Shown here in pieces: positions 36,289-54,891 of a DNA stretch of 64,000 nucleotides. This stretch comes from Phycisphaerae bacterium (GTDB taxonomy: Bacteria > Planctomycetota > Phycisphaerae > UBA1845), in the NCBI GenBank assembly GCA_963666835.2, contig CAXXGO010000001.1, positions 480,001-544,000 on the forward strand, in the 5' to 3' direction. Position 1 is the first letter of the stretch. Each line of letters starts with the position of its first letter. The notes beneath the pieces are model-generated. The model did no database searches, was not told the DNA's origin, and saw only the letters and a list, made by a program, of their open reading frames with translations. Position numbers and translations under genes: made by a program.

Positions 36289-37915
36289 TCAACCGCACGA
36301 ATTATGCAGGCAGCTGTCGCACACGAAGCAGCCGGCTTCGCGGCGCATGCGCCGGTTGCAGAATGGGCACGATCGACCTGCGGCCCGTTCGGCGGCCCCG
36401 TCCGGGCAGGTAGATCCGCCCAATGCCTCTTCGATCGCCCGGGCAATCGCGTCCGGGCAGGACAAAACGTCGATGCCGTTATGGCTCTTCCGTGCCGCCG
36501 CCGTCGACGGGCACCGGATGCCGCGCAGCTGCTCGATCAGCTCCTTCGGGCTTACGCCAGATCGCAAGGCCGTGGAAACCGCCCGACACGTTGCCTCCGA
36601 CTGCGACGGGCAACCGCCGGCCTTGCCGAGATTAGCGAACACTTCGCACAGCCCGGCCTCATCTCGGTTGACCGTAACGAAGAGCGTTCCACAGCCCATG
36701 CGGAACTTGAAAGTCTGCCCACTCGTGACACGGCTACGAGTCCTGGGGGTCGGCCCGCTACCTGACGCGGTAACGCCCTTGTCGTTCAGGGTCGAAAGCG
36801 TCTGACCACGCCGTGAACCATCGCGGTACACGGTGATCCCTTTGCAGCCAAGTTCGAAGGCCATCCGAAACACCTTGTCGACCTCGGTAGCGCCAGCGCT
36901 ATTCGGCAGATTGACCGTCTTGGAGACGGCGTTATCGACGTTCTCCTGAAACGCCGATTGCATGAGCACATGCCAGTCCGGAGTGACCTCATGGGCGGTC
37001 ACAAGAAGCTCGGCGATGCCCTTGGGGATGCCGGACACGTCGGTTGCAGGAACGCCCTCCAGCAGGGCCTCGCGGACGCGGTCGTCTATCCAGCCGTCGC
37101 GCAGGCCGATTCTCTCGAGGAGCGGGTGTACCTGAATGAACTCCTGACCCTCCAGGGCGTTTCGGCGATAGGCCAGGCTGTAGATCGGTTCGATCCCGCT
37201 GCTGCAGCCGGCAATGATGCTGATGCTGCCCGTCGGTGCGATGGTCGTGCAGGAAGCGTTGCGCATGGGCGAGCCATGCTCCGAATCCCAAATGCTCCCT
37301 GCCCAGTTCGGGAAACTGCCGCGCTCCTCGGCCAATTGTGAGCTTGCGCCGTGGGCGTGATCCTGGATGAAGCGGCTGACCCCCGAAGCGAACCCGAGCG
37401 CCGCGTCACTGTCATAACGCATTCCCAGCAGGATCAGCGTGTCGGCTAAGCCCATGACGCCCAACCCGATCTTGCGGTTGCCGAGAGATCGCGATCGGAT
37501 CTCTTTGGTCGGATAGTGGGTCAAGTCAACGACGTCATCGAGGAACCGGATAGAGAGCTTCACAGCCTTGCCGAGAGAATCCCAATCCAGGTCCCCGGCG
37601 TCCTCGTCGACGAACGTGGCGAGATTGATCGAACCGAGATTGCAGGCCTCGTTCGGGAGCAGAGGCATCTCACCACAGGGATTGGTCGCTTCGATCCGGC
37701 CAAGCCCGGGCGTTGGGTTGTCCTCGTTAACACGGTCGATGAAGCAGACACCGGGTTCACCCGTCGCGTGAGCGTTATTGACGATCATGTTCCAGACGTC
37801 GCGCCGGCTGTAGCAGGGAACGCCTGCGTCACCGGCTGGCACGAGATCCTGGAGTGAGTAACCGGGCAGGGAGACCACACGCGGGATCACGTATCGGTGA
37901 CCGGTTCGCCGCGAA
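36289..37915 (-). pseudogene. nrdJ: Class II (B12-dependent) ribonucleotide reductase, N-terminally truncated, with TSCPD domain and Zn ribbon
   Basis: GEPG, TNPCGE, CNLGSINL, RKIGLGVMG, TTIAPTGSIS, SKTVN, KGITVYRDGSR, LSCPDAIA, CPFC...CDSC. The N-terminal part with the other redox cysteine is missing; the 5' limit is approximate. Confidence 0.85.
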
Positions 37916-37916
37916 C

Positions 37917-38180
37917 ATGAACGACGCCCTGGACCATGTGATGAGTGAATTAGGTGTTGGTGTGAAGCCGGGACGAGACCGGCCATCGAGTGGGAAGCCG
38001 GTTAACCAGCCCACGGCTGCGAAGCCTACGGCGCCCAAGCCGCACGGTAAGCCGCCCGGCAAGGACGAGGAGCTCGAGGCCCTGTCCAAAATTGACCTCC
38101 AGCGCCATGCGGCGAGCGTGCTCGGCCTGGACCCCGAGACGGTGAAGAAGGCCACGACGAAGCAGTCAGGCCAATCCTGA
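37917..38180 (+). CDS. Short hypothetical ORF, probably the 3' remnant of a gene truncated at the same junction as nrdJ
   Basis: Back-to-back with the nrdJ remnant with no promoter space; stop lies 8 bp before the WD40 gene. Confidence 0.4.
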   Translation: MNDALDHVMSELGVGVKPGRDRPSSGKPVNQPTAAKPTAPKPHGKPPGKDEELEALSKIDLQRHAASVLGLDPETVKKATTKQSGQS

Positions 38181-38188
38181 CGAGGTCG

Positions 38189-40051
38189 ATGATCGAAACT
38201 GAGCTTATCTCGTGTGCATTGTTGGGCGGCGGTCGATCGCGACCGGGCTTGTGGATCCTACGTCCTGGCGACGGCGAGCCCACACGGATTGCCAATCTCG
38301 AACTTGGCCAGAGTGTCTACGCAATCGACGTGGACGCGGACGCTGGATTGATCGTACTTGGCACACGAAGTGGAAGCATAAAGGTCCTGCCCGTGCGGGA
38401 GGAATCCGCGGGGCCGGGCCAACAGGAACACGTCACCCTATCCCAGAACGCCCCCCTTCTGGCAGTATGTTTCGCCGGCAAGGACCGTGTTGTCGGCGCT
38501 GACGCTGCCGGCCGATGTTTGCTGTGGAACCCCCTTGATCGCAGCAATGGTGCAACGCCCCTTGAAGTCAAGGGAGGTACCGTCTGTTCGGTCTTGCCGC
38601 TCACGCAGGAGTCGGTCATTGGTCTTTCGACCGATGGCAAGCTGTTGATCTGGGACGTGCGGACCGGCACTCTCACGCGCGTCGTCGACGCACACAAACC
38701 CTGCAAGAAGCATGCGCTGGTCCGGCTGCGCCACTGGGCCGCCCGCAACGCTATCGTATACGCGTCTAGCGAGGGCGACCTTGTAGTCTGGGAAATCGAC
38801 TCGCAGCAAGCAAACCTTCTCCCCGCCCACTCTGGCGAGTTCTACGTCATCATGGCGGCTGGCGACCGGCTGTACACGATAGGCAGGAACGATGGGTTGC
38901 TGAAGGTATGGGATCCAACCGCCACGAACTGTTGCCGGCAGATCGGCGCGCCGAAGGGCGTTGCCGCTGGAGACATCCTCCCGGATCACACTGACAAGAT
39001 GCTCCTCGTCAACGACGAAGGACAAGCAGCCATTTACGAGATCAACGCGAACTCGCTGCGAGTGCTGCGCCGGTTTGCAGGTGACAGCTATCGAAGCGTG
39101 TATTGCAGCTCCCAAGAAGCACGGAGAGCCTTCGAACAGAGATGGCGAGTTACGAGGGGGGAGCAGCTTCAAGAGCAGATTCGAGCCAAGATAGACGCTG
39201 GCGAATGCGAGGCTCTCGAGGAGTTCTACCAGGAGTTGATCACGCTTGGCTTTGAGCTGGTCGCGCTTGCCCTTCGCGCCCGGCAGGCCGCAAAGGAACA
39301 CGATGATCTTGGCACACTTGGAGCCATCCACGCACTGGTGACTGGCCTGCCGCACGAAGAGAAAACGCGATCCTCGTGGCTTCACCGTTACGCCCAAGTA
39401 CTCGAGTCGCTCTGGTGCCTTGAAGAGGCTCGTGCAGCCCAGCGAGAAGCTGGCGTCGGACAGGCGGTTTCCCACTGGCTCGATGAGGCTGCCAGGGTCA
39501 TCGCGGCGGACAATTGGATCGCAGAGCCAGACGCGCCGTTGCCCGCCTTGATCGAGGCGGCGACGATCATCGGAACGCCGTTTCGCGGGAGATGGGTTTT
39601 GGCGGTGTCCGCGCAGCTGAAATACGACGCCGGGACGCTAACCCCCCAGACGCTTACTGCCGCATACAAGGAAGTCAGGCGGAAGCGCGTGTCCGCGGGG
39701 GCGCTTCCCGCCAGGATCGAAAGCCCTTGGTGGATATCGCGAGCGTCGGTGCAAGAGGTAGGCACCATTCTTCTCGGAGATACGGCAAGGCAGGCAGTTC
39801 CGGGGATTCGGCCGGCCGTCCAGATTCGCAACGAGGCGCATCACATCGTGGCAATGCCTGTGATCCTTCTGGAGACCGGTCGCCCGACGGACGACATTGA
39901 TGTCGAGGAACACAATCAACGAGTCCTATCTGTCTGCGAAGAAGTGAGCCACCTGGAGCCAGACGATCTCTGGCCACGCGCAACCTATCACGACATGATC
40001 CAGGCTCTGCGCGCGCTGAACACTAAGGCTCGACGCGACAGGCGGCTGTAG
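38189..40051 (+). CDS. WD40-like beta-propeller protein with helical C-terminal region
   Basis: Repeats DGKLLIWD, EGDLVVWE, AHSGE...DGLLKVWD. Confidence 0.75.
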   Translation: MIETELISCALLGGGRSRPGLWILRPGDGEPTRIANLELGQSVYAIDVDADAGLIVLGTRSGSIKVLPVREESAGPGQQEHVTLSQNAPLLAVCFAGKDRVVGADAAGRCLLWNPLDRSNGATPLEVKGGTVCSVLPLTQESVIGLSTDGKLLIWDVRTGTLTRVVDAHKPCKKHALVRLRHWAARNAIVYASSEGDLVVWEIDSQQANLLPAHSGEFYVIMAAGDRLYTIGRNDGLLKVWDPTATNCCRQIGAPKGVAAGDILPDHTDKMLLVNDEGQAAIYEINANSLRVLRRFAGDSYRSVYCSSQEARRAFEQRWRVTRGEQLQEQIRAKIDAGECEALEEFYQELITLGFELVALALRARQAAKEHDDLGTLGAIHALVTGLPHEEKTRSSWLHRYAQVLESLWCLEEARAAQREAGVGQAVSHWLDEAARVIAADNWIAEPDAPLPALIEAATIIGTPFRGRWVLAVSAQLKYDAGTLTPQTLTAAYKEVRRKRVSAGALPARIESPWWISRASVQEVGTILLGDTARQAVPGIRPAVQIRNEAHHIVAMPVILLETGRPTDDIDVEEHNQRVLSVCEEVSHLEPDDLWPRATYHDMIQALRALNTKARRDRRL

Positions 40052-41180: not shown

Positions 41181-41883
41181 CGTCTGGTGTCGGTCGTCCC
41201 CACGGCTCGAAACCTGAGATCAGACATCGGCCCGCGCGGTGTGATTCGGCCAGCAACCTCCGGGTTATGAGCCTTACATGCTACTTGGCGCCTAAACCAT
41301 TGTCAGCACGTAACCTACAGCGTTTTCAAGAGGTTGCATGTCGTTTTCCCAACTCTACATGTGCAACATGTTCACCATGTAGAGCACCATTTTGGGCCTC
41401 ATTCTGGTCACCCCCTGCGCGCGAGTCAACCCGACCGCAGAGGTACGGTCGCATCCGCCGAGTATGCGTGCCAGTGCATCCAGTTGTCTCACGCGGTTTT
41501 GGACGTGGCGGCCATGCCCGTCTCCCCGGCTTCCGGCAGTCGGGTTCAACAGGTGCGCGCACTCCCAACACCAGTCTGACGCGGAAGCCAGACGGACAAG
41601 GTGTCCGTCCCGATGCGTGGCAACAACTGCCAGCGTAGCGCATGGCTGGTGGTCGTCTCGTCGGCGGAAGCGCTGAGGATCAGTCACGGACGCGTCCGAA
41701 CGTCCAGCTTGGCAAGCCGCCTTTTTACCACGGTCGCGTGCTGAAATGCCGCACAACAAGCCAAGGAGCACGAAATCAAGTGCGGATTTGCGCGAATCCA
41801 GCTACTATCAGCGAGCCGATCATGTATACTACTATTAGTGGCTGGAGCCGCTGCGTACCAAGCGGCCGGCCCGACAGCTGTTC

Positions 41884-41989
41884 TCGGATGACTTGATAAA
41901 GGGCAACCCGGCCGCGCCGGGTGGCTCGTTGCAGAGTAAGCCGACGTGGTTGAGCACCTTCGGGTGTTTGACCACGTCGGCTTTTTTTT
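41884..41989 (+). promoter_or_regulatory. Conserved structured RNA leader with intrinsic terminator (candidate riboswitch/attenuator), copy A
   Basis: TCGGATGACTTGATAAAGGGCAACCCGGC..GCCGGG..GTTGCAGAGTAAGCCGA followed by a long stem and T8; two more copies in the window. Confidence 0.8.
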
Positions 41990-42110
41990 GGGCTTGCAGT
42001 GACTTGAGGAGGTTGCAACCACCGAGAACCGTGAGGAGCGAAGTGAGTGCTGGTCCGTGCAGCTGGGGACGGGGCTGGGCAGGCACGAAGCGAGGTGCAC
42101 CGATACGAGA

Positions 42111-42980
42111 ATGACCATGGTACAGTTGATTCCCAAGTCTACGACGACACAACACAGGCGGAAGGACACTTCAGTGTCACGCGATGCCGCCGTATCACGC
42201 GTTGCAGACAGCTACGAGCTTTATGTCACCCAACACGTGCAATCGGTGTTTCGCCCAGGTGCAAAGTGGAGGTGCCCCGGGGTACAGATTGACGCGGCCG
42301 GGTTCATTAGCGGCCGACCCGGTGGAGATTTCTATATAGCTGCGCTCGGTCCGCACAACGAGGTGTCACTCGCAGTCGGAACCGTCAAGGGCAGTGGGTT
42401 GTTGCCGACGCTGTGCAAAGCGTTGATTGCTGCTCTCATCCATATGCAAGCGCGTCGAGCGTCTCCACCAAGCGTCCTCGTTCAGAAGGTCAGTTCTCTT
42501 TTGTGCGAGTTCAACAAAAATGCGCCGCGCCTCCCGGTCGTCTGCTCCATGTTCACCGTATTGATCGACAGGAGGCGGGAAACGTTTGAGTACTGCAGAG
42601 CTGGCGACTGCCGGCCGTTTCTGCAGACAGAGGACAGTCAGTGGTTCGAGCTTCCTCCCACCTGCCGAGGCCTAGGATGCGCGGCAGAGACAGACACCGA
42701 TGCCCATGCCTTGGTTATGGAGGCAAGCCAGATCGAGCGGCTCGCTGTCATTACTGCCGGTTGCTCAGGTAACGGGAAAGGAACGACTAATAATGTGGGT
42801 GCTGCTCTCCTATCGTCGATCCCTTGTGGATCGGCGAGCCGACAAGTACGCGCCATGTTAGCGAAGATCTGTCCGGAACGGTATCACGGCGCGTGTCCGG
42901 AGCGTGAAGTCTCGGTGGTCGTCGCAGATCTGCGCTACAGTGAAGACTCTGATGCGCCTGCGACAACCAGCCCGTGTTGA
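42111..42980 (+). CDS. SpoIIE/PP2C-like phosphatase-fold protein, apparently degenerate
   Basis: GGDFY motif, but the usual D(V)xGxG and TDG metal-binding aspartates appear replaced (GTVKGSG, ITAG). Confidence 0.6.
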   Translation: MTMVQLIPKSTTTQHRRKDTSVSRDAAVSRVADSYELYVTQHVQSVFRPGAKWRCPGVQIDAAGFISGRPGGDFYIAALGPHNEVSLAVGTVKGSGLLPTLCKALIAALIHMQARRASPPSVLVQKVSSLLCEFNKNAPRLPVVCSMFTVLIDRRRETFEYCRAGDCRPFLQTEDSQWFELPPTCRGLGCAAETDTDAHALVMEASQIERLAVITAGCSGNGKGTTNNVGAALLSSIPCGSASRQVRAMLAKICPERYHGACPEREVSVVVADLRYSEDSDAPATTSPC

Positions 42981-43072
42981 GGCGAGCGAACGCGTCAAGA
43001 CATCATGGAAGTCTGAACCAGTTTGGCGGACAGGTGGTGTCAGCCTGTCCCCGCATGGTGAGGTATAATGCG

Positions 43073-44545
43073 ATGAGAGTGTTGATGGTCTCAACGGCTA
43101 CGCCGAACACCTTCTGGAGCTACAAGCACGTCCTGTCGTTCATCTCAAAGAAGTCGTGTTTTCCGCCGCTGGGTTTGTTGACCGTCGCGGCGATGCTCCC
43201 AAAGCGCTGGGACCTCAAGCTCGTCGATCTCAACGTTACATCGCTCACCGACGCACAACTCGCGTGGGCGGATTACGTGTTTGTCTCGGCCATGCTCGTG
43301 CAGGCCGATTCCGCGCGGGAAGTCATCGCCCGGTGCAGCGAGCTGGGCAAGACCGTCGTTGCCGGCGGCCCCCTGTTCACCACCGGCCACGCGGGATTCC
43401 CCGAGGTGAAGCACTTCGTCCTCGGCGAGGCAGAAGACATTATGCCCGAACTCGTGGCTGACATGGTCTCCGGAAAGCTCAGGAAGTACTACCGTTGTGA
43501 AGAACGGCCCGATATTTGGAAGACGCCGGTACCCCGGTGGGACTTGATCAACCTCAAGCACTACGTCCTGATGCCGCTTCAGTTTTCGCGCGGCTGCCCG
43601 TTTGATTGCGAGTTCTGCGACATCATCGTGATGAACGGCCGAGTACCGCGCCTGAAAAGCAACGAGCAGATGATCCGCGAACTGGAGAGCCTTGTGGACG
43701 CAGGCTGGACCGACCCGATATTCATTGTGGACGACAACTTCATTGGAAATAGGACAAAGGTAAAGGCGTTCCTTCGTGAACTCATCGTGTGGCAGCAGCA
43801 ACGCAGCATCCGGCTGCAGTTCACGACTGAGGCCTCGTTGAACCTAGCGGACGATCCGGAACTGCTAGACCTGATGGTTCGTGCGGGCTTCAAGAAGGTC
43901 TTCGTCGGGATCGAAACGCCGCAGGAGGACAGCCTGCTCGAATGTGGAAAAGTCCAGAACGCCAAGCGCGACATGCTCAGCGCCGTCAAGGCGATCCAGA
44001 AGTCCGGTCTCGAGGTGATGGGTGGCTTCATCGTCGGATTCGACAGCGACAAGCCCAACATCTTCGAGCGACAGATCAGGTTTATCCAGGAGGCCGGCGT
44101 CGTGACGGCCATGGTCGGTCTGCTCCAGGCGCTGCCGGGGACGCGGCTCTTTTCGCGGCTCAGCCAGGAAGGTCGCATCCTTCACGACGCGAGCGGAAAC
44201 AACGTCGACGCAAGCCTGAATTTCGTCCCCAAGCTCGATCGCGAAGTGTTGATCGAAGGCTACCGCGCGCTCGTGAAACGCCTATACACGCCGAAGATGT
44301 ACTATCGGCGCATCCTGACGTTCCTGCGCGAGTATCGTCCGCAGGGGCGACGCTTCCACCTATCCTGGTGCGACGCGAAGGCGTTCTTCAAGTCGCTCTT
44401 GGTCATGGGTGTCCTGAGCCGCGGGCGACGGGAGTACTGGAAGTTCTTCACGCAGGCGTTGCTCTTCCACCGCCGCGCTTTCCCGGAGGCTATGACGCTC
44501 GCGATCATCGGATATCACTTTCGGCGCGTCGCGTCGGCGTTGTAG
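43073..44545 (+). CDS. B12-binding radical SAM protein (DUF4070-type C-terminus)
   Basis: PPLGLLTVAAMLP; SRGCPFDCEFC (CxxxCxxC); DDNF; GGFIVGFD. Confidence 0.88.
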   Translation: MRVLMVSTATPNTFWSYKHVLSFISKKSCFPPLGLLTVAAMLPKRWDLKLVDLNVTSLTDAQLAWADYVFVSAMLVQADSAREVIARCSELGKTVVAGGPLFTTGHAGFPEVKHFVLGEAEDIMPELVADMVSGKLRKYYRCEERPDIWKTPVPRWDLINLKHYVLMPLQFSRGCPFDCEFCDIIVMNGRVPRLKSNEQMIRELESLVDAGWTDPIFIVDDNFIGNRTKVKAFLRELIVWQQQRSIRLQFTTEASLNLADDPELLDLMVRAGFKKVFVGIETPQEDSLLECGKVQNAKRDMLSAVKAIQKSGLEVMGGFIVGFDSDKPNIFERQIRFIQEAGVVTAMVGLLQALPGTRLFSRLSQEGRILHDASGNNVDASLNFVPKLDREVLIEGYRALVKRLYTPKMYYRRILTFLREYRPQGRRFHLSWCDAKAFFKSLLVMGVLSRGRREYWKFFTQALLFHRRAFPEAMTLAIIGYHFRRVASAL

Positions 44546-44589
44546 AGCGAACCGGGTTCACTCGGAAATGGGGGCCATGAAGGCAGCGG

Positions 44590-44970
44590 CTACGGCTTCT
44601 TCTTCTCGCGCACGAGGGGCGACTCGGCCAGGGTGAAGACCACGATCTCTTCTCCGGTGGTGGTGCTGATGTCGTGGTGGAGGCTCACTACGTTGACGCC
44701 CGTGACCTCCAAGACCATCGATTCCAAGACCGCCCGGGCTGCCTCGATCAGCTGGATCCGCACTTCTTTGAGCAGGGCCCTACCTCTTTCGCTCGAGAGA
44801 GACTGGACGAGGTGCTGCTCGGCCGCGGTCAGAACGCCCACGAGACGGATCACGACGAGATCGCCAATCAGGTGGGACTGGATATTCTTCGGCCCGCGGC
44901 CCATGAACTCCTGTTCAAAACGCCTGATGCCCTCGCCAATGGCAGCCTCGATCTCTCCCTGTGTTTTCAT
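44590..44970 (-). CDS. DUF2294 / MpsC-family protein
   Basis: GGAGG RBS; EQEFMGRGPK, GVLTAAEQHL, VTGVNVVSLHHDISTTTGEEIVVFTL. Confidence 0.88.
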   Translation of the reverse strand: MKTQGEIEAAIGEGIRRFEQEFMGRGPKNIQSHLIGDLVVIRLVGVLTAAEQHLVQSLSSERGRALLKEVRIQLIEAARAVLESMVLEVTGVNVVSLHHDISTTTGEEIVVFTLAESPLVREKKKP

Positions 44971-45199
44971 CGTGACCTCCAGCCTGCCCCGCGTAGCGGT
45001 CGGTTCTGGCACAGCTGAGATGTTCACTCGGCCACTAGCGCGACCCTCTGATCCCGTAACCTGCAGAACACGATATCGACCACCGGGCAATAAACCTACT
45101 CATTCTTGAGGAATCCGGCAACCATCGGCGCGCCGATGTAGTATACTATAGTAGTGAGCGAGGTCGCTGTGCGCTCTACGGCGGCTCCGGTCGAGGTTT

Positions 45200-45304
45200 T
45201 CGGATGACTTAATGAAGGGCAACCCGGCGCTGCCGGGGCGTCCGTTGAAGAGTAAGCCGACGTGGTTGAGCACCTTTGGGTGCTTGGCCGCGTCGGCTTT
45301 TTTT
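45200..45304 (+). promoter_or_regulatory. Conserved structured RNA leader with intrinsic terminator, copy B
   Basis: TCGGATGACTTAATGAAGGGCAACCCGGC..GCCGGG..GTTGAAGAGTAAGCCGA followed by stem and T7; upstream TATACT -10-like box shared with copy A. Confidence 0.8.
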
Positions 45305-45362
45305 GTTCTTGGCGGCCGCGGTGGTGCGGACGAACGATCCTTTCGCAGAAAGGTGCAGAGAC

Positions 45363-45812
45363 ATGTTAAGAACCCGATGGCATCCTTTGGGCGTGGTGTG
45401 GCCGGAGATGAACCGTCTGCCGGCGGAAATGGAGCATAGGTTAGGCCGTTTTGTGATGAACGACCCGAGGCGGCTTGCCCACAGCGCCTATCCGCCGCTC
45501 AACCTCTGGGAGGACGACAACAACCTGTACGTCGAAGCGGAACTTCCCGAGCTTGAGGTGACCGACCTGGAGATCTTTGTCAAAGGCGACAACGAGCTGT
45601 CGATCAAAGGCGAGCGCAAGCAACCCGAACTGGGAGAGGGCAAGTGGCATCGTCGGGAGCGAGGCCATGGTGAGTTCTCGCGGGTGGGCGTGTTGCCTCA
45701 CTACGTGGACAGCGACAAGGTCACGGCCAAATTCAGGCACGGTGTGTTGACCATCACGTTGCCGAAGCGAAAGGAGGCCCAGGCGCGGCGAATCGAGGCC
45801 AAAGCCACCTAA
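45363..45812 (+). CDS. Hsp20/alpha-crystallin small heat-shock protein
   Basis: YPPLNLWED, EAELP, RRERGHGEFSR, AKFRHGVLTITLPK. Confidence 0.9.
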   Translation: MLRTRWHPLGVVWPEMNRLPAEMEHRLGRFVMNDPRRLAHSAYPPLNLWEDDNNLYVEAELPELEVTDLEIFVKGDNELSIKGERKQPELGEGKWHRRERGHGEFSRVGVLPHYVDSDKVTAKFRHGVLTITLPKRKEAQARRIEAKAT

Positions 45813-45971
45813 TTCCGACACCGGCCGCGTCTCGCCCGCCTTCCACGTCGGCAGGTTGGGTCGAAAGTGGCCATGTCACGGGAGGTGGGCCTCGACACGA
45901 AATCGGCGGTCAATGCGAGCGCGAAACAACGTTTTGGAACGTATTTTCTTGACAAAGTGGAGGTGCAAACC

Positions 45972-46367
45972 ATGACACCAACCTTAACGACGGAAGAAAC
46001 CCACAGCGACGTTGCCCCCGTGGAACGTACACTCGGTGGGATTACTTTCAGTCCCCGGTTCGACATCTGGGAGAACGACGACGAGACGATTCTGTACGGC
46101 GATCTACCCGGTGTCATGCCGAGGGATTTGGATGTTAGCTTCGAAAAGCCCGTGCTGACGATTCACGGCAAAGTCAGTCCGCGCCACGATGACATCAAGT
46201 TCCTGCACGGCGAATACGGAATCGGCGATTTTCACCGTACGTTCACCATCGGCGAAGCGATCGACACGGAGAGGATCTCCGCCGAATTCAAGAACGGTGT
46301 CCTGACCGTGCATTTGCCGAAGGACGAGAAGGTGAAACCGCGTGAGATCGAGGTCAAATGCCGCTGA
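45972..46367 (+). CDS. Hsp20/alpha-crystallin small heat-shock protein
   Basis: GGAGG RBS; PRFDIWE, DLPGV, AEFKNGVLTVHLPK. Confidence 0.9.
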   Translation: MTPTLTTEETHSDVAPVERTLGGITFSPRFDIWENDDETILYGDLPGVMPRDLDVSFEKPVLTIHGKVSPRHDDIKFLHGEYGIGDFHRTFTIGEAIDTERISAEFKNGVLTVHLPKDEKVKPREIEVKCR

Positions 46368-46616
46368 TGCAAAGACCTCTGAGGAATCGTATCTGGTTCG
46401 AAATCGGAGCCGCTGGCGCCGAAGGCAAAGGACGCTGCGCTGAGCCCTCCTCGTGTCACCACAATGAAAGGTCTTCCAGTTGCTCCATTCTGATCATCCT
46501 GCTGCCTACGGGACGCACGTGATCACCAGCGCAGCGAGATCGTCTGCGCTCAAGAAGGAGGTCTGGTTATGACTCGATTCGCTTGGATGACTGATTGATC
46601 TAAAAGGAGAATCTTC

Positions 46617-47603
46617 ATGGATCCTATCGTGTATGCAGTGATCTTCGCCGTTGTCGTTCCTTTAGTGGTCTTTTTCTCGGGCATCAGGCTTGTTCGTCCA
46701 ACACACAAGGGACTCGTCGAGAGGCTCGGCAGGTACCGGCGCTTCGCGAATCCGGGTTTCAACTGGATCATCCCTGTCATTGACAGAATGATCAAGGTCA
46801 ACACGACGGAGCAGATGGTTGATGCCCAGCCGCAAGAGATCATCACCAACGACAATCTCAACGCCAGGGTGGATGCCCAAGTCTACTTCAAAGTGAAGGA
46901 CGACGAGGAAAGCGTCAAGAGTTCCCAGTACCACGTCAACAACTACCAGAGTCAGATTGTCAGCCTGGCTCGGACGACACTCCGCAATATCATCGGCACG
47001 TTAACCCTGAAATCCGCCAACAGCGAACGAGACAACATCAACGGTGCGCTTCTGACTACGTTGAGCAAGGAAACCATGAGCTGGGGAATGGCGATTGTCA
47101 GGACCGAACTGAAGGAAATCGACCCTCCCAAGGATGTCCAGGAGACGATGAACAAGGTTGTCAAAGCGGAGAACGAGAAGGTAGCCGCCTTGGATTTCGC
47201 CAACGCGGTCGAGAGACAGGCGGATGGGGAAAAGAGGGCGGAGATCAAGAAGGCCGAAGGCATCAGGCAGGCCAAGATTCTTGCGGCGGAGGGCGAGGCC
47301 CAGGCAATAAAGCTCGTGAATGAGGCGGCGAACACATACTTCATTGGAAACGCACAGCTTCTGAGGAAGCTGGAGGCCCTCGAGAGCTCATTGAGCCACA
47401 ATGCCAAGATCGTCATTCCGTCAGGCTGTGAACTGGTCAATGTCATCGGAGAGATGGCCGGCGTTTTGCCGCTGGCGGGCGGAAACGGACGACGCCGAAG
47501 CGAAGACGGAAAACACGGGTCCGCGGAGTTGGCGCGGGCGGCCCAGCGGGTGGTCAAGCCTTCTGTTATGAGGGAGGAGGTCCGCTCGCAGCCTGCGCTG
47601 TAG
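46617..47603 (+). CDS. SPFH/band 7 (stomatin-like) membrane protein
   Basis: N-terminal TM helix; GLVERLGRY...PGFNWIIP, QEIITNDN, ELKEIDPP. Confidence 0.9.
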   Translation: MDPIVYAVIFAVVVPLVVFFSGIRLVRPTHKGLVERLGRYRRFANPGFNWIIPVIDRMIKVNTTEQMVDAQPQEIITNDNLNARVDAQVYFKVKDDEESVKSSQYHVNNYQSQIVSLARTTLRNIIGTLTLKSANSERDNINGALLTTLSKETMSWGMAIVRTELKEIDPPKDVQETMNKVVKAENEKVAALDFANAVERQADGEKRAEIKKAEGIRQAKILAAEGEAQAIKLVNEAANTYFIGNAQLLRKLEALESSLSHNAKIVIPSGCELVNVIGEMAGVLPLAGGNGRRRSEDGKHGSAELARAAQRVVKPSVMREEVRSQPAL

Positions 47604-47685
47604 ATGCTGGTCGGCATTCATGCGGTCAGTAGAGGATGTACGGAGCCACCGGTGACGTTTGATTCGGCTCCGATCACAGTCTGAG

Positions 47686-47788
47686 TCGGATGACTTAATG
47701 AAGGGCAACCTGGCCGTGCCGGGGGGCTCGTTGAAGAGTAAGCCGGCGTGGTCAGACACCTTATGGTGTCCCACCGCGCCGGCTTTTT
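47686..47788 (+). promoter_or_regulatory. Conserved structured RNA leader with intrinsic terminator, copy C
   Basis: TCGGATGACTTAATGAAGGGCAACCTGGC..GCCGGG..GTTGAAGAGTAAGCCGG followed by a stem with compensatory changes and T5; directly upstream of a DUF2294 gene. Confidence 0.8.
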
Positions 47789-47836
47789 CTCGCTTGCAGT
47801 GGTAGTGGACGGCCGTAGCGGCCAGGGAGGAACGCC

Positions 47837-48256
47837 ATGGACAAACCCAATTCAACAATGGCGCGCCAGATTGCCCAGGCGGCCAGTGTTTTCGAGCAGC
47901 AGAGGACGGGCAACACACCCAAGTCCGTGACCGTGGTGCTGAGCGACACCACGCTGGTGATCACGCTGCACGGGGCCTTGTCGGAGGCCGAGAAGGCCCT
48001 GGCGAGAAGTCCCGAGGGTGCCGCTCAGATACAAGACTTTCACCGACAGCTGTTCGCCAACGCCTCCGAGTCGTTGCGACAGGAGATCAAGAGGATTACT
48101 GGCGTGGAGGTGCGTGAGGCTACCGCGGAAGTCGAGCCGGCTACCGGCACCGTGGTAGGCGTGTTCACAAGCGGCACGACGGTACAGGTATACCAGCTCG
48201 CGCATGGCGTACCCACGGACACCTGGAACGGGAGTGAACGAGGCGACCAATCATGA
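47837..48256 (+). CDS. DUF2294 / MpsC-family protein (second paralog)
   Basis: GGAGG RBS; FEQQRTGNTPKSVTV, LHGALSEAEKAL, ITGVEV. Confidence 0.8.
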   Translation: MDKPNSTMARQIAQAASVFEQQRTGNTPKSVTVVLSDTTLVITLHGALSEAEKALARSPEGAAQIQDFHRQLFANASESLRQEIKRITGVEVREATAEVEPATGTVVGVFTSGTTVQVYQLAHGVPTDTWNGSERGDQS

Positions 48257-48491: not shown

Positions 48492-48935
48492 ATGGGTAAG
48501 ACGAACGTCGAACGACGAAACCACGCGTGGTTTGCCCTGGCAGACGCAGAGCATTGTCGGCTCTTGTGCTGCCGCTTGACTGAACAAGGCACGCCACACG
48601 TTGACGAGTATGAAGCGATCGAGAACAAGTTTCCAGAACGTGAACACCTGCGGCCGCAGACCGGGGACGGCATGACCCATGATGTCGAGGAGAAGGAGCG
48701 ACGTTTCACGGGGAAGATCGTGGAAAGGTTGCAGGAGAACGCCAAGAAGCACGAGATCGATTGCCTGGTCATCTTCGCGCCCGCTCGCATGCTCGGCGAA
48801 CTCCGGAAGGCTTCCTCCCGACTGCTACCGGGACACCTTAAGGAACTCGAAGGCAATCTGATGCGCCTCGATGCCGGCCAGTTGGCAGAACATCCGATGG
48901 TCCGCGACCTGGTGCGGACCACGCAAGAGCCATGA
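48492..48935 (+). CDS. Host attachment protein / baeRF-like domain protein
   Basis: AAGGAG RBS; WFALADAEHCRL and LVIFAPARMLGELRK motifs. Confidence 0.7.
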   Translation: MGKTNVERRNHAWFALADAEHCRLLCCRLTEQGTPHVDEYEAIENKFPEREHLRPQTGDGMTHDVEEKERRFTGKIVERLQENAKKHEIDCLVIFAPARMLGELRKASSRLLPGHLKELEGNLMRLDAGQLAEHPMVRDLVRTTQEP

Positions 48936-49100
48936 TGTTCGGAGCCGTAATCATGAGCACGCTCTGCGGGGCGAACCGGTGGCCGTATGCAATCCGCATT
49001 GTGAGGACGTTGAGGGCTTGAACAGACACGGAGACCAGCTCATGCAACAACGAAAATCTGGAATTGGAGCGGAGCTGCGACATCACATGGAGTGCCTTTG

Positions 49101-51680
49101 ATGAACGAGTTGACCACGGGTCCGGAACCGGCCGGCGTTGCACGTTCTGCCGGAAACAACGGCAAAGGTGACCGCAACCGCATCGCTTTCGTCGGCAACT
49201 ACGTGCCGCGGTGCTGCGGTATCGCCACCTTCACAACTGATCTATGTGCCGCGTTGAGCGGCAATGGGACCGAGTGTCTGGCGGTCGCGATGAATGATCG
49301 CCTGGAGCGCTACGACTATCCATCCCCGGTGCGCTTCACCATCGAACAGAATGACTTGGCATGCTATCGCCGTGCCGCCCAGTTTCTCAACAATCGCGCC
49401 GATGCCATCAGCCTTCAACATGAGTACGGCATCTATGGAGGTCCGGCCGGCAGTCACATCCTGACGGTCCTGGCCGAGCTGCGCGCCCGCGTCGTGACCA
49501 CGCTGCACACGGTGCTGCGCGAGCCGACGACCGAACAGCGAGAGGTGCTCGAACGAGTGGGTGGCCTCTCCGACCGCGTGGTTGTGATGAGTCGCCGAGG
49601 CGCGGAGTTCCTCCACGAAATCTACCGTATCCCCACAGAGAAGATCGACTTCATCCCCCACGGTGTGCCCGACTTCGCCTTCGTCGATCCAAGCTTCCAT
49701 AAGGAGCAATTCGGGGTGCCGGGCAAATCGGTGCTGATGACCTTCGGCCTGCTCGGCCCAGGCAAAGGCCTGGAGAGCGTCATTCGCGCGTTGCCGGCGA
49801 TCATCGCTCGCTTTCCGAACGTGGTGTACCTCGTCGTAGGTGCTACGCACCCCCACGTGTTGAGTCAGCAGGGTGATATCTACCGTATGAGCCTGCATCG
49901 GCTGGCCCGGGAACTCGGCGTCGAGCAGCACGTAGTCTTCCACAATCGTTTCGTCGATCACCAGGAACTGACGGAATTTATGGGTGCCGCCGACATCTAC
50001 ATCTCGCCCTACGAGCACGAAGCCCAGATTACGTCGGGGACCCTCGCGTGGGCGGTCGGTGCTGGCAAGGCCGTAGTCTCTACCCCTTACTGGTATGCCC
50101 AGGAACTGCTGTCGGACAAGCGTGGCGTGCTCGTGCCGTTCAAAGACCCGGCAGCAACCGCCGAGGCAGTGAATCGTCTATTGGAAGACGACGAGGAACG
50201 AAACGCGATGCGAAAACGGGCGTACCTGTTCGGGCGCGAGATGACTTGGCCCAATGTCGCCCGTGCGTACTTGGACTCCTTTGCGCGTGCCCGTGAGCAG
50301 AGTGCGCACCACCTCCACGTACTCCGCGCCTTTGCCCCGCAGCCGCTCATGGGGGACGTGCTGCCCGAAATACGGTTGCAGCACCTAAAACGCCTCACGG
50401 ATGGCACTGGGGTACTCCAGCATGCGCGTTTCTCGGTCCCCAGTTATCGAGAGGGGCATACCACCGACGACAATGCCCGGGCGCTGCTCCTGATGGCCCT
50501 CCTGGAGCAACTGGGCGAGCTGCCGTCCGACGAGATCGAAGATCTGACCACGCGCTATCTGGCCTTCCTCGACTATGCTTTTGCCGCTGACACCGGACGC
50601 TTTCGGAACTTTCTGGCATACGGGCCACGGCGCTCGCCCGAAGGAGTCGGCTCGGAAGACTGTCACGGGCGCGCCCTGCGGGGACTGGGGGCGTTGGTGC
50701 GGCGTACCAACCGACCTGGGTTGCGAGGCGCAGCCGTCAACCTGTTTAGCGCGGCGCTGCCCGCCGCGCTAGAGCTAGAGTCGCCGCGTGCCTTGGCTTT
50801 CACTCTGCTCGGGATACACGATTACCTGCGTTGGCTCTCGGGCGACCGCGCCGCGGAGGAAGCTGGCCAACGGCTCACCAGCCGACTCGTAACCCTTTAC
50901 CACGAAACAAGTCAGAAGGGTTGGACCTGGTTTGAAGACTCTCTGACCTATGCCAACGCGTGTCTGCCCGAGGCGCTGCTAGTCGCAGGCGAATCCCTGG
51001 GCGAGAGCCAAAGCACAGAAATCGGCTTGGCAACGCTCGACTGGCTGATGAGCGTGCAGCGTGCAGTGGGAGGACACTTCGTGCCCGTTGGCTCAAATGG
51101 ATTCTACAAGCGCGGAGGCACACGCGCCTGCTTCGATCAGCAGCCCATCGAGGCCTGCGTCTCGGTTTCTGCCTGTCTGACAGCCCAGCGAATCACCGGC
51201 GACTTGCATTGGCGGCGGGAGGCGGAGCGAGCTTTCGAATGGTTCCTGGGCCGAAACGATCTGGGGTTGCCGCTATGCGACCTCCGAACAGGCGCGTGCT
51301 ATGACGGCCTGTGTCCAGATCAGGTAAACGCCAATCAGGGTTCCGAGTCGACACTGGCGTATCTCGTGGCCTTGGCGGAAATGCGGCTCGCCGACCAAGC
51401 GAGCGTTCTGCCCTGCGATGCAGAGTCGGCTGCCAGTGCGTCACCCTCAGACCTGGAAGCACATCGTGTCAGACAATCGTTACGAAATACTGTTTCATCG
51501 CCAGTCGTAGAACCCGACCGTGACGCCGATGCTGGTGTCATATGTGATCAGCTCGCCGTTCAATCCCGGCGTGACGCGTCTGACGATTCTAGAGAAGAGA
51601 ACAGAGTCATATGTCAAAGCCAAGAAGTCCCAGCACCCAGCGCGATTGCGCGTTCAGGAAGAACGAGCGTGAGCAAGTGA
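49101..51680 (+). CDS. Glycosyltransferase family 4 fused to a C-terminal glycoside-hydrolase-like helical domain
   Basis: GNYVPRCCGIATFT, QHEYGIYGG, FGLLGPGKGLE, SGTLAWA; C-terminal TDDNARAL, FDQQPIEA, NQGSESTLA. Confidence 0.88.
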   Translation: MNELTTGPEPAGVARSAGNNGKGDRNRIAFVGNYVPRCCGIATFTTDLCAALSGNGTECLAVAMNDRLERYDYPSPVRFTIEQNDLACYRRAAQFLNNRADAISLQHEYGIYGGPAGSHILTVLAELRARVVTTLHTVLREPTTEQREVLERVGGLSDRVVVMSRRGAEFLHEIYRIPTEKIDFIPHGVPDFAFVDPSFHKEQFGVPGKSVLMTFGLLGPGKGLESVIRALPAIIARFPNVVYLVVGATHPHVLSQQGDIYRMSLHRLARELGVEQHVVFHNRFVDHQELTEFMGAADIYISPYEHEAQITSGTLAWAVGAGKAVVSTPYWYAQELLSDKRGVLVPFKDPAATAEAVNRLLEDDEERNAMRKRAYLFGREMTWPNVARAYLDSFARAREQSAHHLHVLRAFAPQPLMGDVLPEIRLQHLKRLTDGTGVLQHARFSVPSYREGHTTDDNARALLLMALLEQLGELPSDEIEDLTTRYLAFLDYAFAADTGRFRNFLAYGPRRSPEGVGSEDCHGRALRGLGALVRRTNRPGLRGAAVNLFSAALPAALELESPRALAFTLLGIHDYLRWLSGDRAAEEAGQRLTSRLVTLYHETSQKGWTWFEDSLTYANACLPEALLVAGESLGESQSTEIGLATLDWLMSVQRAVGGHFVPVGSNGFYKRGGTRACFDQQPIEACVSVSACLTAQRITGDLHWRREAERAFEWFLGRNDLGLPLCDLRTGACYDGLCPDQVNANQGSESTLAYLVALAEMRLADQASVLPCDAESAASASPSDLEAHRVRQSLRNTVSSPVVEPDRDADAGVICDQLAVQSRRDASDDSREENRVICQSQEVPAPSAIARSGRTSVSK

Positions 51681-51877: not shown

Positions 51878-52090
51878 CGAATCATCGAAGGCGCGATCAC
51901 GAAGCTATCACGTGGCATGCGCGTGGGCTTTTGCAGATGGCTGTTACGGCCATAGAACACACAAGCGCCCGCAACGGGCGGGTGAGTGCTGTTCGGCGGA
52001 CGGATGAGCGAGTGACGTACGCGAGTGGCGTTGGAGAAATACTCATCGCTCATCCCGACACGATTCGGATTAGGCAATAGGAGCAAGAAA

Positions 52091-52402
52091 ATGAAGTTCA
52101 TCGACGTTTTGGCTGTGGTTGTCGTTCTCGTTGGCGCACTGAACTGGGGACTTGTCGGTCTGTTCCAATTCGATCTTGTGGCGGCACTGCTGGGCGACGC
52201 GACGCTGCTGAGTCGATTGGTCTACGTCGTCGTGGGCGTCGCCGGTCTGTTTCTGGCCCTCCAATGGAGGGCCATTCACGATCGCTGGGTGGGCCACGGG
52301 AGAGTGACGGCCGATCTAGCGGATTTGCGTTCTGCCGCTGCCGGTGAGCGGTCGGAGGAAACGGGAGATCGACCGGTAGTCGGTGCCCCGGAATCAGGGT
52401 AG
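52091..52402 (+). CDS. DUF378 family membrane protein
   Basis: AGGAG RBS; VGALNWGLVGLFQFDLVAALLG...SRLVYVVVGVAG. Confidence 0.88.
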   Translation: MKFIDVLAVVVVLVGALNWGLVGLFQFDLVAALLGDATLLSRLVYVVVGVAGLFLALQWRAIHDRWVGHGRVTADLADLRSAAAGERSEETGDRPVVGAPESG

Positions 52403-52451
52403 TCAGCAACCCACGGGGTAGCACCCGTGAAAAGGACGACAGGAGACTAGC

Positions 52452-52742
52452 ATGGACGCGACACCAATAAACACCGTGTCAGGAATCGGTAGCGGCGAAG
52501 CCTCGGGCCGCGTCGGTCTCAACACGGAGAAGGCGATCACTGCAAAGCCTCCGACGGGCTCGCCCGTCCAAGATACAGTGGAGCTATCCCCGGTAGGAAT
52601 AGCGCTTTCGCAGGCTGAGGTTCAATCTCGCCCGACGGCCGCGCGGATAAGTGAGATCCGCGCCGAGATCAGAGCCGGGACGTTTCTGACGCCAGAACGC
52701 ATGGACGGGATCGTCGAGAGGTTGCTCGAGATTCTCGGTTGA
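52452..52742 (+). CDS. FlgM-like anti-sigma-28 factor
   Basis: AGGAG RBS; DTVELS ... ARISEIRAEIRAGTF pattern. Confidence 0.7.
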   Translation: MDATPINTVSGIGSGEASGRVGLNTEKAITAKPPTGSPVQDTVELSPVGIALSQAEVQSRPTAARISEIRAEIRAGTFLTPERMDGIVERLLEILG

Positions 52743-52879
52743 GCGAGCAGAATCGAGAGTCAGGCCGCGGCGCGATGGATGTGTTATCTCGCAGCCCGGC
52801 AGGCCGAATTCATGGAAGCCAAGGACGCGGAGTTCCACCCGGGCTCACGTGTCCCGCGGCATTGCATAAGGATCTGAAG

Positions 52880-53917
52880 ATGGAGCATACGTCGAGTCCT
52901 GTCGAGTTGGTCTTACGGCACTACGCAACCCGTTATCGAGGATGGATTATATTCGGCCTGGTTTTCTTTCTGGCAGTATGGGGCGGGGTCAGTGTGTTCT
53001 ACTCGGTGGAGGCGGACAGCGAAGGAGTGGTTCTTCGCTTCGGAAAGTACTCCAAGACGACGCTTCCGGGGCTGCACACGAAGTGGCCCTGGCCGATCGA
53101 TGCGGTGATGGTCGTGCCGGTACAGCAGATTCAGACGCTGGAGTTTGGGTTCGGGACAATTGATCCGGGCCAGGTCACCCGGTACGCCCTGCAAACGCCG
53201 GAACACGAAACGATCGCCCGCATGCTAACCGGCGATCTGAACTTGGCCCACGTGGAATGGATCGTCCAGTACCGCATCAAGGATGCACAACACTACTTGT
53301 TCAGGATCGGAGGAGACCACAGCAACAAGGTCGCGGTGGAGAACACGATCCGGAACGCCGCCGAAGCAGTCCTGCGAAAACTGGTCGGCGACCGGAGTGT
53401 CGACGAAGTCATCACGAGGGGGCGCGAGGAGATCGCCAGCGAAGCCAAACGGGAGATTCAGGAGATGATTGACAACTTCGAAGCCGGCGTTGAGGTCGTC
53501 ACCGTCAAGCTCCAGTCAGCTACGCCGCCCGAGGCAGTCAAAGATGCGTTCGATGCGGTCAACCGCGCCCGGCAGAACAAGGAGCGGGTGGTCAACGAGG
53601 CCCGCGGGGAACGCAACCGCGTCATTCCTGCCGCCCGGGGACAACGTGATCGTGTGATCTCGGAAGCGGAGGGATACCGGGAGCGCGTGGTACCTGAAAT
53701 GACCGGGCGTGCAAACGCGTTTCTCGCCCAGTTGGCGGAGTACGAGAAGGCGCCGGAGGTCACTCGCACGCGCCTCTACCTGGAAGCGATGGAGGAGACG
53801 CTGGCCCAGGTAGACGGCATCACCGTGATCGACGAGTCGGTTCGCGGGGTACTTCCGATGTTGAATCTAAGTCCCGCCGACCCACCGGCCAAAGGCCAGG
53901 AAGGGGGTGGACGATGA
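52880..53917 (+). CDS. hflK: FtsH protease modulator HflK
   Basis: GVVLRFGKY...PGLH.KWPWPID, MLTGDLN, VKDAFDAV, APEVTRTRLYLE. Confidence 0.92.
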   Translation: MEHTSSPVELVLRHYATRYRGWIIFGLVFFLAVWGGVSVFYSVEADSEGVVLRFGKYSKTTLPGLHTKWPWPIDAVMVVPVQQIQTLEFGFGTIDPGQVTRYALQTPEHETIARMLTGDLNLAHVEWIVQYRIKDAQHYLFRIGGDHSNKVAVENTIRNAAEAVLRKLVGDRSVDEVITRGREEIASEAKREIQEMIDNFEAGVEVVTVKLQSATPPEAVKDAFDAVNRARQNKERVVNEARGERNRVIPAARGQRDRVISEAEGYRERVVPEMTGRANAFLAQLAEYEKAPEVTRTRLYLEAMEETLAQVDGITVIDESVRGVLPMLNLSPADPPAKGQEGGGR

Positions 53918-54891
53918 AGACCATCGTCGCTCTGGTGATCGTGATCCTGGCTGCAGTTGTTGTCATTCCAGCATCGACGTACACGGTGCCAGAAGGATGG
54001 CAGGCGGTAATCACGCAGTTTGGAGATCCGGTTCGGGTCCGAACCGAGGCCGGGCTCTACTTCAAGCCGCCATTCATTCAGGAGATCCACCGTCTGGAGA
54101 AGCGTCTGCTGCCGTGGGATGGCGATCCCGAGAACATGCAGACGCTCGACAAGAAGAGGATCTTCATTGACGTGTGGGCCCGATGGCGGATTGTGGACCC
54201 CATGAAGTTCTTCCAGGCCGTCCGCACGGAAAACCGCGGCTACAAGATCCTTGACGACCTTGTCGACTCGGCCGTCCGTGACGTGGTCGCGCGAAACAAC
54301 CTGATCGAGGTGGTACGCAGCAGCAACCGGGAGCTCCTCTATGAGAGCGACGAACTGGCGCGCGATGCCGCATCCAGCCAAGATCGTATCACCGTGGGGC
54401 GGGCCAAGATGGAAGCCGAGATACTCACCGTTGCCAGCGTCGGCCTCAAAGAACAATACGGCATGGAACTAAGTGTCGTTCACATCAAGCGGGTCAACTA
54501 CATCGAGTCGGTACGCACGACCGTGTACGACCGGATGAAGTCCGAGCGCATAAGGATCGCCAAGCTCTTCGAATCCGAGGCCGAGGAGGAGAAGAACCGC
54601 ATTCTAGGACTGACCACCAAGGAGCTCGACGGAATCAAAGGCGAACAAGAGCAGCGGGCGGCCGAGATCCGCGGGAGGGCGAAGGCGGAGGTGATTCGGA
54701 TTGCGGCCGAGGCTTATGCGGAGTCGCCCGAGTTCTACGGGTTCCTCCGGCATCTGGAGACCTACAAGAAAACGTTGGGCACCGGCACCCGCCTCGTGCT
54801 CTCCACGGACAATGAGTTGCTCCGGCATCTTCGGGGTCCGACGGTGGGCGGCAATGAAGCGACCCTTGCGCAGCCAAAAGAGACTCCCTGA
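53914..54891 (+). CDS. hflC: FtsH protease modulator HflC
   Basis: Overlaps the hflK stop; QAVITQFGDP, GLYFKPPFIQ, RMKSER, PEFYGFLRHLETY. Confidence 0.92.
   Translation: MKTIVALVIVILAAVVVIPASTYTVPEGWQAVITQFGDPVRVRTEAGLYFKPPFIQEIHRLEKRLLPWDGDPENMQTLDKKRIFIDVWARWRIVDPMKFFQAVRTENRGYKILDDLVDSAVRDVVARNNLIEVVRSSNRELLYESDELARDAASSQDRITVGRAKMEAEILTVASVGLKEQYGMELSVVHIKRVNYIESVRTTVYDRMKSERIRIAKLFESEAEEEKNRILGLTTKELDGIKGEQEQRAAEIRGRAKAEVIRIAAEAYAESPEFYGFLRHLETYKKTLGTGTRLVLSTDNELLRHLRGPTVGGNEATLAQPKETP

Follow-up and report, generated by a model that had tools for sequence, protein, structure and literature searches.

A leader RNA that is repeated ahead of operons in the genome of a Phycisphaerae bacterium (Planctomycetota) is probably a cis-acting transcription attenuator worked by the canonical type of MpsC/DUF2294 protein (PF10057), which would bind a rod-shaped hairpin in the leader and antiterminate. 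We describe the element from a stretch of 64,000 nucleotides (nt; hereafter the window; assembly GCA_963666835.2, contig CAXXGO010000001.1, positions 480,001 to 544,000), in which it occurs as copies A, B and C. As in protein-dependent antitermination, an antiterminator hairpin excludes a default terminator, according to prediction and covariation. The RNA family is apparently undescribed, and it appears to be a real attenuator that spans at least two phyla and has a specific candidate trans factor. The proposal would provide a first testable function and a defined candidate RNA target for MpsC/DUF2294, which is found beside bicarbonate transporters and whose deletion is phenotype-free in Staphylococcus aureus. 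To our knowledge, the sensing of CO2 or bicarbonate by heterotrophic bacteria for the control of carboxylation and uptake genes is poorly understood, and the MpsC–leader pair is a candidate for such a sensor. If the proposal is true, Planctomycetota possess a general-stress regulon run by attenuation; were the RNA a riboswitch instead, the class would be new, and at least 155 distinct members of it are already known.

The leader RNA and its two predicted folds

A core pattern of the element matched the window at 41886, 45202 and 47688, and had no match in 100 shuffles. The three copies, when aligned, have a mean column identity of 83% and each folds with a z-score of about −6; the terminator stem comprises 20 pairs in copies A and B, with a T-tract behind it. 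A preliminary description of the window, made from the sequence without database searches, had placed three copies here, each ending in a long stem and a T-tract, and in this it was right. On the forward strand, the antiterminator hairpin spans 41883–41945 in copy A (helices P1 to P5) and 45199–45261 in copy B, as judged by predicted fold and homolog alignment, and 47685–47747 in copy C, 81 nt past the stop codon of an SPFH gene. The intrinsic terminators extend over 41938–41989 in copy A, overlapping P1 and ending in a U-tract, 45254–45305 in copy B, also with a U-tract, and 47740–47790 in copy C, with a U-rich tract. The term 'triplicated', used in the earlier account, holds within the window but not for the genome, in which a profile search found nine full copies, eight in C1 521–591 kb and one at 146 kb; a covariance model agreed on these nine, its next matches being reverse-strand echoes.

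To place the copies in a wider family, we collected homologs. The exact pattern yielded 28 loci among Genome Taxonomy Database species genomes (26 with planctomycete titles and two from one record titled Gammaproteobacteria), and a shorter pattern at least 124 metagenome stretches; at least 155 distinct full-length copies were gathered and 150 were aligned. Core variation is under-sampled because the seed patterns fix the core. The copies and genes in the record titled Gammaproteobacteria (L009 and L020, genome G151) are nearly identical to planctomycete ones, and the record is possibly mis-binned.

The alignment describes a rod in which P1 (GUCGG/CCGAC) is followed by a 3×3 loop with an invariant G·A, P2 (ACU/AGU), a further 3×3 loop, P3 (YRA/UYR), an A·G mismatch, P4 (GGGC/GCYC), a 2×2 loop and a variable apical hairpin. 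In this register 95.9% of cells are paired, with 27 double-sided changes against 5.4 in shuffles; the changes fall mostly in the apical hairpin, and P1 and P2 are nearly invariant. ACU/AGU is paired in 99.1% of cells and the inner stems jointly in 95.5%, and RNAalifold, unprompted, chose P1, P2, P4 and P5 but not P3. The preliminary description had drawn the inner stems as CTTR/TAAG, which is paired in 71.5% of cells and has one pair that only 15 of 150 homologs keep, and CAAC/GTTG, paired in 89.8% with the first pair broken in 39 of 150. That register, 88.0% paired overall, was rejected, as the homologs favour ACU/AGU, YRA/UYR and GGGC/GCYC. For the terminator, 94.2% of cells are paired, with 172 double-sided changes against 40 in shuffles and far lower values in slid controls, so that covariation across homologs extends to both folds; the variation in the copy C terminator preserves pairing, as had been noted at the outset. 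The invariant columns include the unpaired G8, G68 and A81, but the paired GG/CC stem at the base is among them too, so the earlier view that unpaired positions are the best conserved holds only in part.

The 3′ strand of the 5′ hairpin doubles as the 5′ arm of the terminator. In naked RNA the terminator is predicted to win over the rod, and the default state would therefore be OFF. With the 3′ end of the terminator blocked, P1 is predicted to form in all 155 copies, and the median energetic cost is 8.1 kcal/mol. By prediction, then, the element is an ON-type attenuator, placed 5′ of genes, in which the base of the rod overlaps an intrinsic terminator, and the shared strand and ON-type layout put forward in the preliminary description are upheld.

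Such a switch might in principle need no dedicated protein, acting as a factor-free physical sensor of temperature, osmolarity or pH, or as a ribosome-coupled attenuator with a mini-ORF (open reading frame) of two to three codons in the core, and we regard both as very unlikely. Targets in this lineage that include Hsp20, GroEL, CsbD and GlsB/YeaQ-type genes would suit a physical sensor, but melting would not favour the weaker fold and the link to MpsC would be left unexplained. An ATG with an in-frame stop within four codons is present in 108 of 150 copies; the 'stop', however, is kept in 33 of the 35 copies in which ACG or AAG replaces ATG, and a Shine–Dalgarno-like 4-mer is found in only 5 of 143. 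Since the start codon is not conserved, the 4-mer is rare and the diverged form described below has no ATG, its triplet being replaced by compensatory pairs, the leader-peptide attenuator was rejected.

It is hardly credible that the copies are dispersed repeats or by-products of segmental duplication, carrying an ordinary constitutive terminator. An Hsp20–Hsp20–SPFH–MpsC arrangement does recur near C1:588–591 kb, with genes resembling those of insertion sequences nearby, but the copies face genes, often behind promoter-like sequences, structure rather than sequence is kept across two phyla, and the 5′ hairpin is more conserved than the upper stem of the terminator. A sigma70-like pattern (TTG, 16–18 nt, TANNNT) lies no more than 130 nt upstream of 76 of 143 copies, whereas base-shuffled controls average 9.3; such enrichment would be expected of 5′ leaders. 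A promoter scan of the window returned nothing above chance. Putative promoters with −10-like hexamers can be read in the sequence upstream of copy A (41825–41830, forward strand), where the consensus scan did not report one, and of copy B (45142–45147, forward strand), in line with the family-level enrichment. GC-rich hairpins lie ahead of copies A and B (41847–41867 and 45163–45186), and a TCCG-type stretch stands 10–20 nt before P1 in many copies, clearly so in copy C; it could pair with the 5′ strand of P1 as an anti-antiterminator.

Searches of existing collections bear out the earlier statement that this is not a known riboswitch class. Rfam 15 (4227 models) gave no match in the window at the gathering threshold and only three weak unrelated matches at E≤10, and none on the element at 16 planctomycete and five Bacillota loci. 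The icd-II motif, considered when an icd gene appeared, had no match in the Rfam scans. We found no published description of the leader in the literature covered, with subscription papers and the supplement of PMC11109978, which may list related motifs, lying outside its scope; the term 'DUF2294' led to one unrelated paper only, and a term search of a 2026 Bacillus subtilis preprint was without a match. Viral contigs contained one weak 23-residue match and no match to the pattern. Metatranscriptome contigs overlap the region, although transcript ends or levels are not readable from such contigs.

Two types of MpsC gene beside the RNA

All six PF10057 genes of this genome flank a copy of the RNA: three high-scoring (canonical) genes lie divergently upstream and three low-scoring ones directly downstream. 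PF10057 was present in 19 of 19 genomes picked by the RNA pattern alone, with a canonical-type match of at least 100 bits in 17, against 15 of 150 other genomes sampled from the phylum, and a first covariance model matched 6 of 151 phylum genomes, five of them with PF10057. The co-occurrence with DUF2294 suggested in the preliminary description is thus borne out well beyond the window. Among 37 canonical matches near copies in the fetched loci, 32 are upstream and divergent, three upstream and codirectional and two downstream on the other strand; none is downstream on the strand of the copy. Of the 145 copies with sufficient flank, 47 are followed by the regulated type. With genome G055 as the one exception, the proposed regulator gene co-occurs with the RNA and stands outside the regulated unit.

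The two DUF2294 genes of the window had at first been treated as equivalent, but they represent subtypes that differ in both position and residues. The canonical gene (44590–44970, reverse strand; PF10057, 116.6 bits), divergent from copy B, would encode the antiterminator, and the regulated-type paralog (47837–48256, forward strand; PF10057, 78.5 bits), behind copy C, lacks the conserved basic residues and is a candidate feedback factor. The two proteins are 31% identical, and PF10057 is the only family match on either. We aligned 83 canonical and 8 regulated rows. Each of R25, R42, R64, K68, R71 and R79 is retained in between 68 and all 83 of the canonical rows, and this type also keeps an S-x-H-x-D motif, whereas the regulated type has lost nearly all conserved residues: the canonical residue is present in none of the eight rows at R25, R42, K68, R71 and R79, and in one at R64. 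An AlphaFold model of the canonical protein, which is confident (predicted local distance difference test score 96), comprises a helix, two strands, three helices and two strands. Foldseek with this model gave no match at E≤0.001, the sequences of solved structures gave nothing significant for the regulated paralog, NCBIfam has no model for either protein, and an Atlas search returned MpsC clusters only. A complex prediction for the canonical and regulated proteins scored 0.02, which speaks for neither side.

We then examined what the leaders precede. A downstream ORF was found heuristically for 141 of 155 copies, and 127 were scanned after 14 spurious-looking ones were left out; some loci share genomes. 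PF10057 is the commonest family of first ORF (46 of 127), followed by CsbD (8), DUF3309 (7), GlsB/YeaQ-type (PF04226; 5), sigma-70 domains (4) and DUF5670 (3), with two each for DUF883, GroEL, Hsp20 and receiver domains. Single matches include DUF1328, BON, DUF2934 and superoxide dismutase, and many ORFs have no family. CsbD, GlsB/YeaQ, DUF883 and BON proteins are typical products of general-stress genes.

Diverged leaders and the weighing of alternatives

A scan of further loci returned weak RNA matches just behind solitary canonical genes, and these proved to belong to a diverged leader, which has a promoter-like sequence and a terminator of its own. It lies ahead of phosphoenolpyruvate carboxykinase (PEPCK) in L182, L183, L184 and L191, and reaches this gene via a second MpsC gene or domain in L188 (a weak match) and L202; in L185 the target is argininosuccinate synthase, and in L187 an operon that includes a NuoE-like gene. 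In Bacillota, represented here by plasmid-collection records, the same core stands behind an MpsC gene and ahead of a major facilitator superfamily transporter in Acetoanaerobium, and between MpsC and a sodium-dependent bicarbonate permease (SbtA) in Anoxybacillus. At most PEPCK-type loci examined, the canonical gene is the only MpsC next to the RNA. We parsed 16 elements (three from the window, two window-type outliers, eight PEPCK-type, two from Bacillota and one poor fit); the best-fit parse, which maximises pairing and has no control, gives a common P1–P4 layout with double-sided changes in P2, P3 and P4, and keeps G·A and R·G mismatches in nearly all elements.

A second, broader covariance model, built on 10 diverged copies, matched 13 of 151 genomes at E≤1e-5, 12 of the 13 with PF10057. 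Its matches outside the training set were a second copy in G030 before PEP carboxykinase, a second copy in G121 and a copy in G125. Four weak matches (G011, G022, G050 and G084; E about 1e-3) resemble plain terminators and were left uncounted, and the terminators behind mpsC in L193 (icd) and L194 (Usp, DUF1275) were set aside as their 5′ parts are not convincingly of this RNA family. A narrow pattern for the diverged form, searched among 401 genomes, matched only its five source genomes and gave no new members.

Several neighbouring arrangements were seen along the way. The closed genome G121 has two near-identical diverged leaders (C1:238310 and 1447154), one behind a canonical mpsC and before a NuoE-like operon, the other unlinked. 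In G012, two tandem leaders (L202:345–545) precede a single open frame (580–2424) in which a regulated-type MpsC domain is in frame with PEP carboxykinase, whether as a fusion or as two genes. Upstream of its DUF2294 gene, Anoxybacillus has a second, longer leader of the hairpin-terminator kind (L211:7850–7985), which was not placed in this RNA family. On Priestia and Bacillus plasmids (L220:4611–4716 and L219:4676–4782, both reverse strand), a distant DUF2294 gene, with a product 26–31% identical to the Anoxybacillus protein, precedes fdhD, and the opposite strand has in both a common, different irregular hairpin overlapping a terminator, which in L220 lies ahead of fdhF. This is possibly a paralog-specific switch for formate dehydrogenase, of the same architecture but different sequence.

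The preliminary description had left the choice between a ligand-sensing riboswitch and an RNA bound by DUF2294 as an antiterminator, and the evidence now favours the second option, because the canonical gene adjoins the RNA outside its control and because the sequence and targets of the RNA change between lineages while the link to the protein stays. Under the first option the rod would itself be the aptamer, and its ligand, whether ion or small molecule, would be bicarbonate/CO2, a metal or a signal of stress; MpsC would then share the physiology by co-inheritance, without acting as the trans factor. We consider this unlikely, though a serious contender: rod-like ion riboswitches exist, a conserved structured 5′ leader is here coupled to an expression platform in a terminator-coupled ON layout with invariant non-canonical positions in its internal loops, this genome has many unlinked copies (nine), and G055 is RNA-positive without PF10057. 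A riboswitch, however, would not need a canonical gene beside it and yet outside its control, nor a constant protein partner when its targets are wholly different between subfamilies (stress as against CO2 metabolism), and the top covarying columns show no multi-helix junction or pseudoknot.

It is also conceivable, if rather improbable, that MpsC controls the leader in other roles or with another polarity, the canonical protein, for instance, promoting termination or sequestering another antiterminator, or the regulated paralog activating in positive feedback. The linkage data fit such schemes equally well, the regulated paralog is the commonest first gene, and the absence of a phenotype in air on deletion of mpsC from S. 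aureus would be expected of a shut-off factor. On the other hand, because the terminator is the more stable fold to begin with, by a median of 8 kcal/mol, a factor is needed to turn the genes on and not off; moreover, the conserved residues sit in the hairpin that competes with the terminator, and most PEPCK-type loci examined have the canonical gene as the only MpsC next to the RNA.

Some observations weigh against canonical MpsC as the antiterminator. The window protein is not net basic (15 K+R, 17 D+E), and among the fold-search matches to its model (best Z 6.3) no RNA-binding protein stands out clearly; RbfA (8byv_A) ranked 12th, with Z 5.2 and a root mean square deviation of 4.0 over 88 aligned residues, within background. 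According to PMC6689103, deletion of mpsC leaves the growth of S. aureus in air unimpaired; mpsAB function in that species therefore does not depend on MpsC, which argues against a role as essential mpsAB activator; the same source reports that mpsA goes down at 5% CO2 and that a weak terminator precedes mpsC. The genomes are related, and the linkage counts are not independent events. In G055, a genome 89% complete, a strong copy of the RNA occurs without any PF10057 match (a second RNA match there resembles a plain terminator and was not counted). For the diverged form, 8 of the 13 genomes matched by the broader model had supplied training sequences, and this model found nothing in 4 of 16 PF10057-positive genomes and no clear element before mpsA on a Staphylococcus pettenkoferi plasmid; by eye, no element stands beside the canonical gene in L181, L195 and L204.

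Proposed mechanism, related systems and gene neighbourhood

By computation, the leader has two alternative folds: five short helices, strung into a rod by purine-rich internal loops, or a strong intrinsic terminator, which takes over the basal strand of the rod and, being favoured in naked RNA, makes OFF the default. We propose that canonical MpsC would bind the rod, most likely at the invariant G·A loop adjoining P1, and hold it long enough for polymerase to read through; this role is suggested by a gene kept beside the RNA yet outside its control, and by the conserved basic residues. Less firmly, the signal in the widespread form may be inorganic carbon or a linked metabolite, as the targets are PEP carboxykinase, argininosuccinate synthase and bicarbonate permease. 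In the planctomycete lineage of the window, the switch may have been multiplied and placed before a general-stress regulon, and the regulated paralog, lacking the basic residues, may dampen canonical MpsC as negative feedback. In a bolder version, possible but in our view doubtful, the MpsC/DUF2294 proteins would form a new family of RNA-binding antiterminators, sensing CO2 or bicarbonate directly and controlling inorganic-carbon genes in several phyla via the rod RNA; a single planctomycete lineage would have turned the pair to another use, a general stress response that acts at the RNA level, independently of sigma factors, and has an RNA-binding-dead paralog built in as feedback inhibitor.

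Among known systems, the RAT (ribonucleic antiterminator) sites of BglG-type proteins are about 30 nt long. BglG, SacY and LicT with their RAT sites (PMC5393181, PMC12591593) form one of the systems closest to the present leader. The likeness lies in an irregular looped hairpin whose 3′ strand overlaps an intrinsic terminator, in its stabilization by a protein (here proposed) and in a default OFF state. The rod, however, is longer, at about 50–65 nt, and is absent from Rfam; neither a CAT nor a PRD domain occurs in MpsC, as both window proteins match PF10057 only; and the targets of the leaders are not sugar-uptake genes. HutP of Bacillus subtilis binds single-stranded NAG repeats inside the hutP–hutH terminator (PMC12591593) and offers a parallel in gene order, a metabolic operon being gated by an intercistronic terminator with the gene of a small stand-alone regulator right before it, as in mpsC–leader–pckG and mpsC–leader–sbtA. 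Its site is within the terminator, whereas conservation here lies in a separate paired rod; HutP gave no Pfam match on the window MpsC proteins, no fold match and no solved-sequence match for the regulated paralog. ANTAR systems (PMC3369931 and PMC8934654) likewise have one motif recurring ahead of many operons, also in series, with a single protein family to read it (as proposed here), but their RNA consists of twin small hairpins with hexaloops, in contrast to a single long rod, and no ANTAR domain was found on MpsC proteins.

The Na+-I/DUF1646, Li+ nhaA-I/II and guanidine-IV riboswitches are terminator-coupled ON switches of simple architecture. They resemble the leader in the competition of P1 with the terminator and in conserved internal-loop residues; the rod differs from them in having no Rfam match and a constant link to a gene outside the regulated unit. 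In S. aureus, ndhF is presumably mpsA, in the operon that carries mpsC. The nearest trace of a comparable leader is RsaX05 of that species, a table entry given as 'cis-acting leader of ndhF?' (PMC2790875), a predicted promoter-plus-terminator leader before ndhF; it is a candidate interval, listed with neither a structure nor a factor and likened by its description only.

The genes around the three copies agree with those named in the preliminary description. On the forward strand, copy A is followed by a SpoIIE-like gene with a PP2C-type domain (42117–42980; PF07228, E 8e-10) and a B12-binding radical SAM/DUF4070 gene (43073–44545). A perfect TATAAT at 43064–43075, 3 nt ahead of its start codon, means that the radical SAM gene may own a promoter. 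Copy B is followed by two Hsp20 genes (45363–45812 and 45972–46367; both PF00011), the second with its start picked by eye as an ATG after a Shine–Dalgarno-like stretch, and by the SPFH/Band 7 gene (46617–47603; PF01145). Copy C is possibly a second gate, in series, on the transcript started at copy B; behind it and the regulated paralog lie a host-attachment/baeRF12 family gene (48492–48935; PF10116, PF18856) and a GT4 glycosyltransferase gene (49092–51680).

Elsewhere in the genome, C1:587–592 kb (L031:3200–8100) holds a near-identical duplicate of the block of canonical mpsC, Hsp20–Hsp20–SPFH, leader, regulated mpsC and host-attachment gene, into which an extra leader and a GlsB/YeaQ-type gene are inserted. 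A degenerate canonical mpsC fragment (L029:15731–15958, reverse strand; 38% over 82 amino acids) is oriented divergently to the RNA copy ahead of a GroEL-like gene. Transposase-like and helper-like ORFs, recognized by eye, lie behind the copy at C1:545006 (L029:2943–6772), which suggests an insertion into the regulon cluster. Upstream of the cluster, the window carries a ribonucleotide reductase barrel with a TSCPD domain (36289–37986, reverse strand) and a WD40-like beta-propeller protein (38189–40051, forward strand). The stress-type cluster goes on at 52025–54891 with DUF378, one small unassigned gene and an HflK/HflC-like SPFH pair.

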